A DNA stretch of 8,345 bases, from the IMG/VR virus record IMGVR_UViG_2778261591_000009; one strand, written 5' to 3'. Source of the stretch: a virus (lineage: Duplodnaviria; Heunggongvirae; Uroviricota; Caudoviricetes). The notes below the pieces were generated by a model. That model worked only from the letters and a program-made list of their open reading frames with translations, did no database searches and had not been told where the DNA came from. Position numbers and translations under genes: made by a program. Positions within the stretch are counted from its first letter, which is position 1. Each line of letters begins with the position of its first letter. Shown one piece after another: positions 1-3,792 of this stretch.

Positions 1-401
1 TCTTGTATTTTTGTTTCGATAGCGCCAGATCTTTTAATGTCTTTTTCAGCACGATAATATGCCTGATCTGGGTCATACTTAAGAACATTAGGAAAATAGA
101 ACTGCTTCGCACCATATGCATCATAAACAGCCATAGAATGGCCTTGCACAGTTACGAATTTAGCAATCTGTCCGTTATATACCGGATATCCAGCAGCGTT
201 AATGATGATTGGTTGCGAAACAGGAACGTGAGAGCCGTCTTCGTTCTCTACATAAACCGGAATCTGGTTTTCAGGATTTACCGGGTCCGTGTCAATTTTA
301 CCGATATAAATTTTGCCATTGGCAACCGCTTTAAAAGAACGCGCCATAGTGAAAAGTTGCGAAGGCATCGATACGATCACATTGGCTGTAATGTCTGTCA
401 T
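1..401 (-). CDS. Tailspike protein, N-terminal head-binding domain (start codon in window; gene continues beyond position 1)
   Basis: Minus-strand ORF starting at ATG 399-401 (GGAG about 9 nt upstream) and running off the window edge with no stop; it is absent from the supplied ORF track, presumably because it is open-ended. My translation is [121 protein letters not shown]... This matches the conserved N-terminal head-binding domain of P22 gp9-type tailspikes as I recall it, and the resemblance stops after KYDPDQ. Confidence 0.88.
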
Positions 402-533
402 TTAATTTGCTCCAGATACAATGAATCGCCGCAGCGTGGCTACGGTTGGTATTTGTTGCATACCGAAACGGTACGATTGTTGATTTGTACAGTAGGTTTT
501 ACGATGCCATTCCACCCATTTGGTGAGGCATTG

Positions 534-791
534 ATGATGTACAGCAAATACGATGAGGCGCAGTTCCACTTGAGGCTTACGCACGAGTTGCACGCCAAGA
601 TTAAACAGCGTGCAAAAATGAATAACAGGTCTATCAATTCCGAAATTGTGGCTACGATGGAAGAATCACTCTCCAAACCATCACCTGTAAGCGGGTATCG
701 TGATGAAGAAGAGAGGCTGGCCTCATTAATCTCGGAACGAGTAAAAGAAGTTGCGGCTGATATCCTTAGAAAAGAAAAAACCCGCGATTAA
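534..791 (+). CDS. mnt: Mnt-like ribbon-helix-helix repressor (Arc/MetJ fold), 85 aa, second orphan copy
   Basis: Same frame as track ORF 3..791 but starting at ATG 534 (GAGG at 525-528). Protein is MMYSKYDEAQFHLRLTHELHAKIKQRAKMNNRSINSEIVATMEESLSKPSPVSGYRDEEERLASLISERVKEVAADILRKEKTRD. It has the RHH signature (FxLRL beta strand, NxRSxNSEIV helix), and the LSKPSPVSGYR...ERLA tail closely resembles the P22 Mnt C-terminal region as I recall it. The upstream part of the track ORF (3..533) looks non-coding in this frame and is occupied on the other strand by the tailspike start. Stop TAA 789-791 lies in the loop of the terminator hairpin. Confidence 0.8.
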   Translation: MMYSKYDEAQFHLRLTHELHAKIKQRAKMNNRSINSEIVATMEESLSKPSPVSGYRDEEERLASLISERVKEVAADILRKEKTRD

Positions 792-799
792 GCGGGTTT
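778..799. terminator. Intrinsic terminator hairpin shared by convergent genes (strong for the minus-strand ant operon, weaker for plus-strand mnt-like gene)
   Basis: Stem aaacccgc (778-785) pairs with gcgggttt (792-799) around a 6-nt loop. On the minus strand the hairpin is followed by UUUCUUUUC and lies 6 nt after the stop of the 73-aa ORF (806). On the plus strand it is followed by a weaker U-containing tract (aguugguuaguu). Confidence 0.7.
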
Positions 800-805
800 A
801 GTTGG

Positions 806-1027
806 TTAGTTATCAAAAAGTCCGTACGTTTCTTCTTCTTCAGGTGTAAGGGGAAGAATCTCTACTCTATCTATAGATACCTTTTCAATGTACCCATGAG
901 GTCTACTTAAAATTAAAGCTCTCTCATGCCACAGAACTCCAAGAATGTGATACCTCCCAGCATCGCCTTTTACCCTGGCTCTTCCTTTGATTCTTGGCGG
1001 CATAATGCCATATTTTTTCTTTGCCAT
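806..1027 (-). CDS. Hypothetical small protein (73 aa), translationally coupled to the upstream antirepressor-like gene
   Basis: ATG 1025-1027 overlaps the TAA stop (1027-1029) of the upstream gene as TAATG on the minus strand; it is the last gene before the terminator. Protein MAKKKYGIMPPRIKGRARVKGDAGRYHILGVLWHERALILSRPHGYIEKVSIDRVEILPLTPEEEETYGLFDN has a lysine/arginine-rich N-terminus and an acidic C-terminal tail. I do not recognise the family. Confidence 0.55.
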   Translation of the reverse strand: MAKKKYGIMPPRIKGRARVKGDAGRYHILGVLWHERALILSRPHGYIEKVSIDRVEILPLTPEEEETYGLFDN

Positions 1028-1755
1028 TATGCAACATTACTCCCATGAATCAGGTGTTGTAGTGCTTTAACACCTTCCGCATTGTAGCGGAATACTTCCA
1101 CCTGTTTGCTGGAATGCGCAGATTTATCCAGGAAGAACTTACCGTACTGCTCAGTTTTGAGGTTGTTTGCGTTAGCAATGCGACCAATCTTGTTGGCCGT
1201 TACTCCAAGCTGCTCTGCAACCTCCCCTGCTGAGTAGTAATGCTCTTCTATTGCTGGAAGAGGTATTGCATTAAAACCAACGATCGGGTTGATTATGCTT
1301 GCTGCCGCAGTCTGCTTTGCTTCCGGCGCAAGATTTGGCATCAAATCGAACAGATTGGTAACAGCTTCAACCGTCATTTTCAATGTTCGCGCCTGGCGAT
1401 ACTCAACAAGTCCACTCGACGATTTACCGCTTTTAATGTGCGCTTCTTGCATACTTTCAAGTTGGTCTACAAGTGAGCGGCGAACAGCTTTAGATTCACG
1501 AGCAGCCACTCGAAGGGCTTGCTTAATTGACATAACAACTTTTTCAGAAGTTGTCTTGTTTGATTTTTGAACTACGAAAATTTCGTAGTGCTCACCTTCA
1601 AGTTCATCCTTAATGCGTGCAATAAAGTCGTTATTTCGGACTTCTTTTTCCCCGCACTGTCTACGAGCATGATTGACCATCTCTAACAGGTACTGGCTAT
1701 CAATGGTTTTATCCGTGACAACGGATCCGATGTTTGCTACATTCTTAAAAGTCAT
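1027..1755 (-). CDS. Antirepressor-like phage regulatory protein (242 aa), second gene of tandem ant pair
   Basis: Track ORF 1027..1842 trimmed to the ATG at 1753-1755, which is preceded by AAGGAA (plus-strand ttcctt 1762-1767); the longer N-terminal extension has no ribosome-binding site. It sits immediately downstream of the Bro-N antirepressor in the same operon. The C-terminal segment YSAGEVAEQLGVTANKIGRIANANNLKTEQYGKFF...VEVFRYNAEGVKAL looks like a helix-turn-helix region of the kind found in phage antirepressor C-terminal (KilAC/ORF6C-type) domains. The family assignment is from memory and position only. Confidence 0.6.
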   Translation of the reverse strand: MTFKNVANIGSVVTDKTIDSQYLLEMVNHARRQCGEKEVRNNDFIARIKDELEGEHYEIFVVQKSNKTTSEKVVMSIKQALRVAARESKAVRRSLVDQLESMQEAHIKSGKSSSGLVEYRQARTLKMTVEAVTNLFDLMPNLAPEAKQTAAASIINPIVGFNAIPLPAIEEHYYSAGEVAEQLGVTANKIGRIANANNLKTEQYGKFFLDKSAHSSKQVEVFRYNAEGVKALQHLIHGSNVA

Positions 1756-1823
1756 TAGGCATTCCTTATGTGGTAGTAAGGGTGTGACATAGGCCGCCAG
1801 CAGCACACTGGCGGTTTTCTTTT
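1750..1823 (+). ncRNA. Candidate sar-like antisense RNA (about 74 nt) opposite the start codon and ribosome-binding site of the second antirepressor gene, ending at an intrinsic terminator
   Basis: Plus-strand promoter-like elements lie inside the first codons of the minus-strand gene: GTGACA (1715-1720), a 14-bp gap, then extended -10 TGcTACATT (1735-1743). The predicted start is near 1750. A GC-rich hairpin (ccgccag 1794-1800, loop cagcaca, ctggcgg 1808-1814) is followed directly by UUUUCUUUU (1815-1823). On the minus strand the same hairpin is not followed by a U-tract, so it is oriented for a plus-strand transcript. Ends are approximate. Confidence 0.45.
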
Positions 1824-1842
1824 GCGCCGTCCTGTGCGCCAA

Positions 1843-2481
1843 TCAATGAATCCATTCCTCGCCGCGAAGTTTTGCCAGCATTGGCTGAGCGTTCTTTACG
1901 ACAAAATTGTTGGGATCAAGATTCTTCATTTCACGAAGAAGCGATTTCTTGGTTTCTTCTGACATGTAGCGAGTCTCATATGCAATATCGTAAATCTTTC
2001 CTGAAAGCTCAGAACCAATTTGCTTCATTCCAGGGTAGATGTGTTTGCACATTTGTTGACTCTTCTCCATCCACAATTGTAAGTAGCAGAGATTAACCAG
2101 TTCTTCGTCAGTAAACTGTTTTGCAATCGGTGAGCATTCTGCCTGCCGATCCAAAATATCCAGCACCCAGCGGCGGAACTCTTTGGCCTTGGGCGTAGAA
2201 GCAAACATCGCCACCAAGTGAGCGCCTCGGAGTGAGTAAACTCTGACCGATTTGTTACGTAAGCTATTGTTTATTCCGTTGACCTTCATATTGAGGGTCA
2301 ATGACATTGAGTCAGAAAATTCGTCAGCATTACGGGCATAAATTTGGCTGATGGCATCAGTTTTTTTATAGCCGAGAGCCTTAGCTAGTTCGGTGGAGGT
2401 AAACCAGATAGACCCGCCCTCTGTTACAGGGTTAAAAGTGAATCCTTGGAAGTTATAATCTGATTTTGCTACAATATTCAT
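1843..2481 (-). CDS. Bro-N domain antirepressor (Ant-like), 212 aa
   Basis: Track ORF 1843..2565 trimmed to the ATG at 2479-2481, preceded by AAGGAA at 7-nt spacing; upstream in-frame ATGs lack a ribosome-binding site and would overlap arc. The N-terminus MNIVAKSDYNFQGFTFNPVTEGGSIWFTSTELAKALGYKKTDAISQIYARNADEF...VRVYSLRGAHLVAMFASTPKAKEFRRWVLDIL matches the Bro-N pattern (F-F ... W-F ... LGY ... F-RW) that I recall from phage antirepressors. It is the first gene after arc, as ant is in P22 immI. Confidence 0.75.
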   Translation of the reverse strand: MNIVAKSDYNFQGFTFNPVTEGGSIWFTSTELAKALGYKKTDAISQIYARNADEFSDSMSLTLNMKVNGINNSLRNKSVRVYSLRGAHLVAMFASTPKAKEFRRWVLDILDRQAECSPIAKQFTDEELVNLCYLQLWMEKSQQMCKHIYPGMKQIGSELSGKIYDIAYETRYMSEETKKSLLREMKNLDPNNFVVKNAQPMLAKLRGEEWIH

Positions 2482-2556
2482 GTTAGTTTCCTTGAGTACG
2501 GTTACTGACATAGAGGCCCGGTTTGTGTTCGCGCACTTCCGGGCTTCACTATTTTT
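2482..2556 (+). ncRNA. Candidate sar-like antisense RNA (about 75-90 nt) across the arc-ant intercistronic region and the ant ribosome-binding site
   Basis: Two plus-strand promoter candidates lie inside the 5' end of the Bro-N ant gene: TTAAAA (2432-2437) with 16-bp spacer and TATAAT (2454-2459), and an extended -10 TGcTACAAT (2467-2475) with TTGGAA (2446-2451) 18 bp upstream. A hairpin (2513-2521 pairing with 2539-2547, including one G-U) is followed by UAUUUUU (2550-2556) abutting the arc stop codon. The position and size correspond to P22 sar RNA, which is established knowledge. Ends are approximate. Confidence 0.45.
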
Positions 2557-2731
2557 ACTGGGCATTAGCTCTTTCCTCTCTCAGGCTTTTAGCCAGTCGC
2601 TGCACAATCGCAGAGTTGATAGAAATTCCATCCATTTCAGCTACGCGTCTGATCTCCTCCTTCATTCGCGCTGGCAAACGAAGCTGGAAACTCTGACTTT
2701 TACGACCACTGTAAAGAACATCGCTCATCAT
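2555..2731 (-). CDS. arc: Arc-like ribbon-helix-helix repressor (58 aa)
   Basis: Track ORF 2555..2746 with the start moved to ATG 2729-2731, which has GGAG (plus-strand ctcc 2738-2741) 6 nt upstream; the track start at 2746 would abut the operator palindrome with no ribosome-binding site. Protein MMSDVLYSGRKSQSFQLRLPARMKEEIRRVAEMDGISINSAIVQRLAKSLREERANAQ aligns with P22 Arc as recalled (QFNLRWPREV...NGRSVNSEIYQRVMESFKKEGR). It is the first gene of the antirepressor operon and divergent from mnt. Confidence 0.8.
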   Translation of the reverse strand: MMSDVLYSGRKSQSFQLRLPARMKEEIRRVAEMDGISINSAIVQRLAKSLREERANAQ

Positions 2732-2742
2732 CAATATCTCCG

Positions 2743-2798
2743 TCATAATGACATCACCATGATGTCATGACACCATTATGATGCCATTGCTCATAATG
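2743..2798. repeat. Cluster of TCATAATG / CATTATGA repeats in the arc-mnt divergent control region
   Basis: TCATAATG occurs at 2743-2750 and 2791-2798, and its reverse complement CATTATGA at 2774-2781. Each contains a CATAAT -10-like hexamer, two on the plus strand and one on the minus strand, interleaved with the 9-bp palindrome arms. Confidence 0.55.
2748..2768. promoter_or_regulatory. Operator-like perfect inverted repeat ATGACATCA-cca-TGATGTCAT at the predicted start of ant-operon transcripts
   Basis: Two 9-bp arms (2748-2756 and 2760-2768) are exact reverse complements separated by 3 bp. The repeat lies between the candidate Pant -10 and the arc ribosome-binding site, where a repressor would block initiation; in P22 the Mnt operator overlaps the Pant start point. 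The flanks hold further related repeats: TCATAATG at 2743-2750 and 2791-2798, and the inverted copy CATTATGA at 2774-2781. Confidence 0.6.
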
Positions 2799-2802
2799 TC
2801 AA
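2775..2802 (-). promoter_or_regulatory. Candidate Pant-like sigma-70 promoter for the arc-ant operon (-35 TTGACA, 16-bp spacer, -10 CATAAT)
   Basis: On the minus strand there is a perfect TTGACA (plus coordinates 2797-2802), a 16-bp spacer, then CATAAT (2775-2780). The predicted start is near 2767-2769, inside the palindrome, about 36 nt upstream of the arc ATG. A divergent plus-strand candidate for mnt (ATGACA 2767-2772, 19-bp spacer, CATAAT 2792-2797) overlaps it, giving face-to-face overlapping promoters as in P22 immI. Confidence 0.5.
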
Positions 2803-2851
2803 TATGATGCTACTGTGTTTTTTATTGCTCATATGCCTTGCGAATAAGAAA

Positions 2852-3103
2852 ATGTCAGAAAAAGACGAATCAAATTTCATAGAAAGATTTACGGTTAGAA
2901 TGCCTGACGGCATGCGTAGTGCTATTGCGGAAAGGGCTAAACGAAACGGTCGATCTATGAACTCAGAGATAGTTCAAATTCTTGAGGATGCGTTATCATC
3001 TGACGTCTCATCAGTAGACAAATCATTAGATCTTAAACAAATAAAATCTTTACTTGATAAAATTTCCAACGAGTTACTGGATAGAATCCCAAAAGACACA
3101 TAA
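2852..3103 (+). CDS. mnt: Mnt-like ribbon-helix-helix repressor, 83 aa (positional mnt)
   Basis: Track ORF 2804..3103 trimmed to the ATG at 2852-2854; the 16-aa upstream extension MMLLCFLLLICLANKK is hydrophobic and implausible for a repressor. Protein MSEKDESNFIERFTVRMPDGMRSAIAERAKRNGRSMNSEIVQILEDALSSDVSSVDKSLDLKQIKSLLDKISNELLDRIPKDT. The N-terminal half matches the Mnt/Arc RHH motif (P22 Mnt ...FRMPMEVREKLKFRAEANGRSMNSELLQIVQDALS as recalled), and the C-terminal half is heptad-like, consistent with a coiled-coil oligomerisation tail. It is transcribed divergently from arc, as mnt is in P22. The region is AT-rich. Confidence 0.8.
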   Translation: MSEKDESNFIERFTVRMPDGMRSAIAERAKRNGRSMNSEIVQILEDALSSDVSSVDKSLDLKQIKSLLDKISNELLDRIPKDT

Positions 3104-3153
3104 CAAAACATTATCATCCGGTGTTCTGCTCAAAACTAAGGAGTGGCTACTCA

Positions 3154-3792
3154 ATGAAAAAAATAGATATATATAGCGATACATCAGCCTATGTCATAGG
3201 CTCATTGGGTTTTTTAATTTTTTTTGTTTGGCAGTACCAGTCACTATCTCCAGGATGGCGATTTTTGGGGATGTCTTTGATATCACTTGGTGCAGGAATA
3301 GCAACGCAGGTGTTGATGTATCTCTTTAATGGATGGCTCTCAAAAAGAGTTGAGAAAAAAAGAGCTACTTCAATATGTAGAAGCCTAGCTATTCCAGAAG
3401 ACTCTACAGATCAGGATGATATTGCAAAATGTTGGCGGTATATGATTGCAAGATACTCAAATGAGTTACTGGCAAACAGACTGTCCGACTTAATCGGGAT
3501 CGTAGTTACCTCTGTTGGAACAATCATCAGTATAGGGATATCAATTTGGTATGTCGGGATGATTGTCTATTTTGTTTGGAATAGAGACTTCAATGAACCT
3601 TCCCTTCTTTTTATACCTTTATTTTTCAGGGTATTAGCATTCATATGTGAGTTATTGCTCTCTTTTTTCTGCAATGTTTTGTTCAACAGATACCCAGGTG
3701 AAGCAAGAAAGTTTAATAAAAACTATGATGAGTTAAGGAGAACAGATCCTTTTCTATCAAGCAAAGAGTTCCGCGATTCCATTCGCAATTAA
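3154..3792 (+). CDS. Polytopic inner-membrane protein (212 aa) at the sieA position; candidate superinfection-exclusion protein
   Basis: Track ORF 3121..3792 trimmed to ATG 3154-3156, with AAGGAG at 3138-3143. The protein has at least four hydrophobic helices (AYVIGSLGFLIFFVWQY, FLGMSLISLGAGIATQVLMYLF, LIGIVVTSVGTIISIGISIWYVGMIVYFVW, LLFIPLFFRVLAFICELLLSFFCNVLF). The gene is very AT-rich (about one-third GC in sampled stretches against about 45-50% in the late genes). It lies between the ejection gene gp16 and mnt on the mnt strand, which is the slot P22 uses for sieA. The functional call is positional; I cannot confirm sequence similarity to SieA from memory. Confidence 0.7.
   Translation: MKKIDIYSDTSAYVIGSLGFLIFFVWQYQSLSPGWRFLGMSLISLGAGIATQVLMYLFNGWLSKRVEKKRATSICRSLAIPEDSTDQDDIAKCWRYMIARYSNELLANRLSDLIGIVVTSVGTIISIGISIWYVGMIVYFVWNRDFNEPSLLFIPLFFRVLAFICELLLSFFCNVLFNRYPGEARKFNKNYDELRRTDPFLSSKEFRDSIRN

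Follow-up and report, generated by a model that had tools for sequence, protein, structure and literature searches.

A stand-alone mnt gene upstream of the tailspike gene in a P22-like prophage and its predicted operator class

Phage P22 Mnt represses the expression of arc and ant (PMC11016777). A complete immI region consists of divergent mnt and arc genes with overlapping promoters and two operators, followed by the antirepressor gene ant, and includes the antisense RNA sar. Villafane et al. 2008 described a variable ‘ant moron’, with ST64T and ST104 carrying mnt only, and suggested that Mnt/Arc may influence late transcription into the P22 tailspike gene (PMC2629481). The stand-alone mnt of phage L is also described in its genome paper, which left the function open (PMC8022706). 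The module with a stand-alone mnt was therefore known beforehand, although its role is still unexplained. Here, we analyze an 8,345-nucleotide stretch of the IMG/VR virus record IMGVR_UViG_2778261591_000009 (hereafter the window). It comes from a P22-like (Lederbergvirus) prophage of Escherichia coli, where it lies between the genes for DNA ejection and the tailspike gene, and its late genes are on the minus strand. We focus on mnt2 (537–791, plus strand; alternative ATG at 534), which encodes an 84-amino-acid Mnt-family ribbon-helix-helix repressor with the beta-strand QFHLRL, and which an earlier note on this DNA had regarded as an orphan second copy beside the positional Mnt-like repressor gene mnt1. 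We consider it probable, at roughly 0.6, that mnt2 is instead the native P22-type mnt, left upstream of the tailspike gene after the loss of its own arc and ant and still encoding a sequence-specific repressor with its own operator. The specificity class is new, but the finding is ordinary in kind: both the repressor family and the module were known.

The closest described system is P22 Mnt (immI, structure 1MNT), with which Mnt2 shares the ribbon-helix-helix domain, a homologous C-terminal helix, a palindrome centred 66–70 nt before the start codon, an operator position abutting the mnt −35 hexamer, and transcription of mnt against the late operon. It differs from P22 in its beta-strand (QFHLRL, not HFNFRM) and its predicted operator (RTACC-N5-GGTAC, not GGTCCAC-C-GTGGACC), and mnt2 has neither a strong divergent antirepressor promoter (Pant) nor an adjoining arc, ant or sar, having the tailspike gene as its neighbour. 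The stand-alone mnt genes of L, ST64T, ST104, ST160 and SE1 likewise combine mnt, a palindrome and the tailspike leader without arc or ant. However, those phages pair QFNLRL with GACCAC-N-GTGGTC, whereas the window module lies behind a second, complete antirepressor cassette, giving three Arc-family genes. The Arc-family repressors of Stx-converting and lambdoid phages have the same fold and are kin of Mnt1, whereas Mnt2 is of another lineage.

The Mnt2 protein and its control region

Mnt2 matches the Pfam family Arc (PF03869; E = 4e-15, residues 8–53), and its closest solved structure is the P22 Mnt repressor 1MNT (E = 2.9e-16, residues 6–78). The assignment of 534–791 to an Mnt-like ribbon-helix-helix protein, first made from the letters alone, is borne out by these matches, with the conserved start at 537: ATG 537 is kept in relatives, and ATG 534 is found in only part of the family. 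A start at 504, as given by PGAP, is unlikely because it overlaps the predicted −10 hexamer and the substitutions there are non-conservative. Identity to P22 Mnt is 47% over 73 amino acids, including LSKPSPV(S/T)GYR and the C-terminal helix, so that Mnt2 carries both an N-terminal Arc-like DNA-binding domain and, at its C-terminus, a helix related by homology to the tetramerisation domain of P22 Mnt. Mnt1 lacks the latter, and its alignment with P22 Mnt covers just the 38-residue ribbon-helix-helix domain; hence, the closer C-terminal likeness of Mnt2 to P22 Mnt that had been noted earlier holds (73 against 38 amino acids). Among PHROG families, full-length Mnt2 is best placed in phrog_795, to which P22 Mnt belongs, and Mnt1 in phrog_1287, and the two proteins align with each other over only 37 amino acids of the DNA-binding domain, at 43% identity. 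The protein identity of Mnt2 falls from 98.8% in JEP4 and 96.4% in Salmonella phage VSe13 to 63–65% in IME10 and Sf101, 57.5% in ST160 and SE1, and 46.6% in P22 Mnt. As for annotation, PGAP names all three genes ‘Arc family’, and RefSeq gives many the label ‘partition protein ATPase’.

For 15 modules, the upstream regions were placed in one alignment, which was set against the annotated P22 record. In this alignment, window positions 459–475 (CATACCGAAACGGTACG; core dyad 461–473, centre 467) fall column for column on the annotated P22 mnt operator, and positions 477–505 fall on the P22 mnt promoter (Pmnt), with TTGTTG-17-TACGAT in the window and TTGAGA-17-TATCAT in P22. The predicted mnt2 promoter consists of a −35 hexamer TTGTTG at 477–482, a 17-nt spacer and a −10 hexamer TACGAT at 500–505, with transcription predicted to start near 512. 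The predicted operator abuts the −35 hexamer at approximately −45 from this start, and the distance from the dyad centre to the start codon is 66 nt in P22, 71 nt in ST160 and 67–70 nt in the window. Judged by this positional alignment and by the class pairing described below, mnt2 probably has a palindromic operator upstream of its own −35, approximately 66 nt before the start codon. To the left of approximately position 458, the window matches the P22 tailspike leader, and 382–458 is 85.7% identical to the P22 gene 9 start region.

The mnt2–tailspike intergenic region spans 402–533, in agreement with the 132-bp region toward a divergent tailspike start that had been described earlier, given that the tailspike start codon is the complement of 399–401. 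Both small dyads reported for this region are present, TACCG-AAA-CGGTA at 461–473 and CACC-N5-GGTG at 513–525, but neither is above chance in this sequence alone. Shuffles of the 132-bp region yield as many, with 1 dyad observed and 0.71 expected for 5-bp arms (45% of shuffles match or exceed the count), and 3 observed and 2.77 expected for 4-bp arms. This rules out statistical support from the window sequence by itself, and the 461–473 dyad gains its meaning only from the comparison across phages. This is the single perfect TACC-N5-GGTA site of the window, and the 49-kb prophage region has no other; the only near-match found as a second site, at 890–904, has one mismatch, lies within an open reading frame (ORF) and is at chance level.

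The second dyad, 513–525, was considered both as an operator and as an RNA structure. It lies in the mnt2 mRNA leader (513–528, plus strand), over the ribosome-binding site GGTGAGG at 522–528. As a class-specific operator it was rejected because its CCAC core is common to all three specificity classes. A hairpin at 513–525 (RNA positions approximately +1 to +13) is predicted at −4.2 kcal/mol in the window and at −0.4 to −4.6 kcal/mol in others, with arms that differ partly in step (CACT/AGTG in P22, CACTT/AAGTG in ST160 and GTCC/GGAC in Buttiauxella). It was not retained as a strong RNA structure: although some arm changes are compensatory, the hairpin is weak and is not uniformly kept.

The strong divergent promoter that Mnt represses in P22 is, as far as the alignment and a promoter scan can tell, gone from the window. 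The aligned Pant hexamers read ATGGCA and CAAATC, and of the arc operator only the fragment CAGTAG is left. A scan for sigma-70-like promoters that recovers the P22 promoters (Pant at 11/12 and Pmnt at 10/12 consensus positions) finds no leftward promoter in 402–533, nor in the ST160, IME10 and Brookers modules, and a leftward tailspike promoter overlapping the operator was dismissed on these grounds. mnt2 adjoins neither arc nor ant and has no strong divergent arc/ant promoter of the P22 kind to repress. The distance from operator to mnt is fixed (63–70 nt), and that from operator to tailspike start varies (45, 57 or more nt). Given this difference in spacing, the lost Pant and the single site, we conclude that the predicted operator belongs to the control region of mnt itself.

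Operator and beta-strand classes

Three beta-strand classes pair one-to-one with three palindromes in the sequences compared. HFNFRM (P22, epsilon34) goes with GGTCCAC-C-GTGGACC, QFNLRL (ST160, ST64T, Gally) with AGACCAC-G/T-GTGGTCT, and QFHLRL (mnt2 of the window) with (A/G)TACC-N5-GGTAC. In pattern scans of IMG/VR, GTCCAC-N-GTGGAC is followed by HFNFRM at 98 of 100 informative loci, all of which adjoin arc. GACCAC-N-GTGGTC is followed by QFNLR[LM] at 82 loci, 70 of them beside a recognisable tailspike start; the remaining loci have variant tailspike starts, or arc plus ant in at least four (L370, L375, L400, L406). CATACC-N5-GGTAC is followed by QFHLRL at 65 of the first 80 loci, and the other 15 are chance hits without mnt. 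Because this last set was selected by its operator, sets selected by gene or protein similarity were added. The TACC-N5-GGTA core was present in 13/13 relatives found by gene or protein similarity and inspected singly, and Serratia (ACATACCTAAACGGTAC) and Buttiauxella (GTACCAAAATGGTAC) retain it at 61–70% protein identity. In the protein-ascertained IMG/VR set, the core is exact in 68/78 copies and has one left-arm change in 9 more, whereas the right arm is invariant, which suggests that the two putative half-sites are under unequal constraint. The left-arm variants read CATACAG, CATAAC or CATATC (L287, L295, L305, L326, L328, L331, L337, L276).

The classes differ at the residues aligned with positions 6, 8 and 10 of P22 Mnt, which we take from the work of Knight, Raumann and Sauer to be the base-contacting positions in Arc and Mnt. 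The P22 class has H-N-R there, the ST64T class has Q-N-R, Mnt2 has Q-H-R and Mnt1 has R-T-R. The two Mnt-like proteins of the window thus differ at the contact-aligned residues when both are compared with P22 Mnt. Together with a dyad at the P22 operator position and nothing like that dyad near 2743–2802, this makes it very probable that they have distinct operator specificities, as the earlier note had proposed.

A separate role of such classes could be immunity against other phages. Mnt repression extends to ant on a superinfecting phage. Mnt2 might likewise repress the antirepressor promoter of incoming phages that carry a matching operator, so that their Ant could not induce the prophage; two Mnt specificities would then cover two phage classes, and the operator beside mnt2 would be only self-regulatory. 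The split into specificity classes is what would be expected of immunity functions, and GACCAC-N-GTGGTC is found both in stand-alone tailspike modules and in at least four full mnt-arc-ant regions, so matching targets on other phages do exist for that class. For RTACC-N5-GGTAC, however, no antirepressor promoter with this operator was found among 107 operator-pattern and 78 protein-similarity loci (overlapping sets) or in the phage database, and every readable module of this class lies beside a tailspike start and none beside arc. Moreover, phage L, which has a stand-alone mnt, is without a functional immI region according to genetic evidence cited in PMC8022706. We regard such an immunity role as rather unlikely. 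A scan for RTACC-N5-GGTAC before antirepressor genes that did not use the mnt promoter flank gave mostly chance hits, and its two P22-like hits proved to be tailspike modules.

Selection, module context and the role of Mnt2

Across 107 mnt2 copies, obtained from the IMG/VR DNA pattern scan plus other loci, 105 are intact, and the ratio of nonsynonymous to synonymous differences (pN/pS) averages 0.105 over the 47-codon DNA-binding domain. Between the window and VSe13, pS is 0.62 and pN is 0.025 over the whole gene. By this measure mnt2 is under purifying selection. The figures are evidence against a decaying duplicate, a possibility that the earlier note had named and that is not borne out.

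Decay has nevertheless to be weighed in a second form, in which mnt2 is the functionless leftover of a degraded immI region, kept only because the conserved 5′ end of the adjacent tailspike gene acts as an anchor for recombination. Both the arc operator and the divergent antirepressor promoter are decayed, 9/78 copies have left-arm operator variants, Klebsiella phage phiKp_30 holds a 5′-truncated mnt2 without the beta-strand, and the remnant option was raised in the phage L paper (PMC8022706). Against this, pN/pS is approximately 0.1 at synonymous divergence of up to 0.6–0.75, the promoter hexamers, ribosome-binding site and dyad are retained across Escherichia, Salmonella, Serratia and Buttiauxella, and dyad symmetry is kept in three different sequence versions. 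A functionless remnant is hence improbable as a general account. The phiKp_30 copy (L006 3956–4198) lies away from any tailspike gene, in a block that corresponds to window positions 597–1864 at 97.8% identity. This suggests that the block moved between hosts recently and that the phiKp_30 copy is a true remnant.

The mnt-operator-tailspike module recurs in ST64T, L, ST160, Sf101, IME10, JEP4 and VSe13, and mnt2 is present in 102/5426 complete E. coli genomes. In every case inspected for module context, mnt is the gene immediately upstream of the tailspike gene and is oriented away from it, while the far side of mnt is variable: a full mnt-arc-ant cassette (the window, E. coli 55989), ant genes together with a helix-turn-helix repressor (E. 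coli HS, JEP4), gene 16 itself (Sf101, W13-16), or other genes (ET776, VSe13, ST160, ST64T, Gally, Proteus phage Brookers). The arrangement of three Arc-family genes seen in the window occurs in at least 25 complete E. coli genomes, where it is annotated only generically. The gene itself is mosaic, given that copies with the same DNA-binding domain differ in the C-terminal 30 residues, which are of window, P22-like or ST64T-like type. The downstream block with a 73-amino-acid ORF accompanies 9/16 distinct sequences with the window-type C-terminus and 0/72 with the P22-like type; therefore, recombination joints lie inside mnt.

From the homology, the selection, the position of operator and promoter and the pairing of operator with beta-strand shown above, we infer the DNA binding, oligomeric state and physiological role of Mnt2 as follows. 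After the loss of its arc and ant partners, mnt2 would have stayed directly upstream of the tailspike gene, transcribed from the weak promoter at 477–505. Its product, probably a tetramer, would retain sequence-specific repressor function and bind one operator, RTACC-N5-GGTAC at 459–475, abutting the −35 hexamer in the same layout as in P22. Because the P22-type divergent antirepressor promoter has decayed, such binding would most plausibly set the level of Mnt2 itself. Bound Mnt2 may also block polymerases that leak past the terminator at 778–799 toward the tailspike gene in the lysogen. The earlier suggestion that this copy controls transcription entering the tailspike gene fits the position but is not otherwise supported: there is no leftward promoter in the region, and the operator keeps a fixed distance to mnt only.

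Several points weigh against the view of mnt2 as a functioning native repressor gene with its own operator. The predicted promoter is weak, matching 7/12 consensus positions and staying below the scan threshold, and, as described above, no leftward sigma-70-like promoter accompanies it, which leaves repression without an obvious target. Given that the invariant right arm adjoins the −35 hexamer while the left arm is altered in 9/78 copies, part of the dyad conservation could reflect promoter function instead of Mnt binding. Within the QFHLRL class, the entire stretch from operator to ATG is conserved, so that the conservation of the dyad is not specific, and for this reason the weight of the argument lies on the comparison between classes. 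A roadblock to tailspike-bound transcription is something we purely infer, and late transcription entering that gene would be impeded by it as well. Finally, the authors of the phage L paper left open that stand-alone mnt genes are remnants (PMC8022706).

A more far-reaching version, which we consider improbable, is that the stand-alone Mnt and its operator form a tailspike gate that also acts on incoming relatives with a different main immunity, where resident Mnt would occupy the same operator and block late transcription into their tailspike gene. If so, the result would be tail-less progeny and a new kind of superinfection interference, and the three or more operator/beta-strand classes would be immunity types of the gate.

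With mnt2 as the native gene, the region is reread such that the tailspike-side repressor is the P22-type mnt and the positional one came with a foreign antirepressor cassette. For a third natural specificity class of Mnt, the analysis offers a concrete predicted operator, RTACC-N5-GGTAC, and so adds to the classic model of DNA recognition by beta-sheets. Purifying selection on a stand-alone mnt sharpens a question left by the genome papers of phage L and epsilon34, namely what Mnt does without a neighbouring antirepressor. The practical consequence is small and lies in better annotation.

Some observations concern the junction with the tailspike gene. In P22 (L003 approximately 3553–3572 and 3664–3683), the ant terminator and gene 9 have between them a 110-bp stretch that is flanked by a direct repeat, G(C/T)(A/G)TGGCTACGGTGAATTTT. 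The motif GGCTACGG, the same as in the P22 repeat, stands at the junction of stand-alone mnt modules with the tailspike leader and is a possible recombination joint. IME10 has a shorter type of tailspike leader (L004 approximately 3402–3428), with a 9-bp inverted repeat ATGCAATCA-N5-TGATTGCAT abutting the predicted Mnt operator, and the Sf101 (L005) version of this repeat has one mismatch. In several relatives (L035, L054, L061, L066, L069, L074, L094, to the left of the operator; E. coli AR_0058), a plus-strand ORF ending in ...AANMVADHLLSR breaks the tailspike frame after approximately 5 codons. PGAP names the corresponding gene HNH endonuclease, and the pattern resembles the insertion of a homing endonuclease at the 5′ end of the tailspike gene.

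The antirepressor cassette and the rest of the window

The cassette at 806–3103 comprises mnt1, arc1, two different antirepressors in tandem and the 73-amino-acid ORF. mnt1 (2852–3103, plus strand) encodes the beta-strand RFTVRM. By Pfam and PHROGs hits, arc1 (2746 or 2731 to 2555, minus strand) is followed on the same strand by Ant (2481–1843; Bro-N and P22_AR_C domains, phrog_245), a second antirepressor (1755–1027, phrog_1726) and the conserved ORF (1027–806, phrog_4977). In the control region of mnt1 and arc1 (2749–2802), where operators are assigned by position only, in analogy to P22, a leftward promoter TTGACA-16-CATAAT (2802–2775, minus strand) faces a rightward promoter-like site at 2781–2808. 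A perfect 19-bp palindrome, TGACATCA-cca-TGATGTCA (2749–2767), lies at the predicted leftward start, and the dyad CATTATGA-N9-TCATAATG (2774–2798) lies between the leftward-promoter hexamers; both are unrelated in sequence to 459–475. By position, the layout of a complete immI region is therefore found in 806–3103, with face-to-face promoter-like sites at 2775–2808 and two dyads, and not at mnt2.

In its DNA-binding domain, Mnt1 shares approximately 72% identity with Arc-family proteins from SPN3UB and from Stx-converting phages, and the cassette ant gene is 94.9% identical to that of phage SPN3UB. Because of these relatives, the cassette looks imported and mnt2 looks native. Mnt2 has the P22-type C-terminus, promoter and operator layout, which reverses the history implied by calling it an orphan second copy. 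Only residues 1–47 of Mnt1 have homologues in the phage collection; its C-terminal 35 residues have no match there and are unrelated to P22 Mnt. In UTAK-1, PGAP treats the identical gene as a partial pseudogene missing the C-terminus, although in the window the ORF is open for 83 codons.

Given their different DNA-contact residues and unrelated C-terminal helices, Mnt1 and Mnt2 should neither share operators nor co-assemble. The cassette has a promoter and two dyads of its own, which differ from the mnt2 dyad, and is a separate module. That Mnt2 instead acts as a second controller, repressing the mnt1-arc1-ant promoter region (2743–2802) as well or cooperating with Mnt1, could be argued from the membership of both proteins in the Arc/Mnt family and from the arc1 beta-strand SFQLRL, which resembles QFHLRL of Mnt2. 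However, no TACC-N5-GGTA is found near 2743–2802, Mnt2 is unchanged beside helix-turn-helix repressor cassettes and without any cassette, and the dissimilar C-terminal helices also speak against joint action, which makes this highly improbable.

The tailspike gene enters the window with its 5′ part (1–401, minus strand), which encodes the head-binding domain (Pfam Head_binding PF09008, E = 3e-67) and continues past the window edge. Its leader, common to P22, occupies 402–458 on the same strand and contains the inverted repeat CCGCAGCGTGGCTACGG at 429–445. At the other end of mnt2, the earlier view of a convergent layout with a shared terminator is confirmed by a hairpin at 778–799 that serves both the ant operon and mnt2. 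Its minus-strand form, with 8 pairs followed by a T-run, is a strong terminator for the antirepressor operon, and its plus-strand form, for mnt2, has a weaker T-tract; the mnt2 stop codon (789–791) lies inside the loop. Beyond the cassette follow a SieA-like gene (3154–3792, plus strand) and homologues of gene 16 (5655–3814) and gene 20 (7124–5652), both on the minus strand. Positions 300–3200 are 100% identical to E. coli strains UTAK-1 and OkiPb01711, and no Rfam family matched any part of the window in a search that admitted E values up to 1.

A possible antisense RNA was noticed in the cassette. A promoter-like site GTGACA-17-TACATT (TG-extended; 1715–1743, plus strand) is located within the second antirepressor gene, at its 5′ end, a terminator hairpin with a T-run follows downstream at 1791–1817, and the RNA from 1750 to 1828 folds at −27.6 kcal/mol (z = −2.1). 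The layout of 1715–1828 is like that of Psar and sar in P22, except that the ribosome-binding site targeted by such an RNA would belong to the second antirepressor and not to the first.

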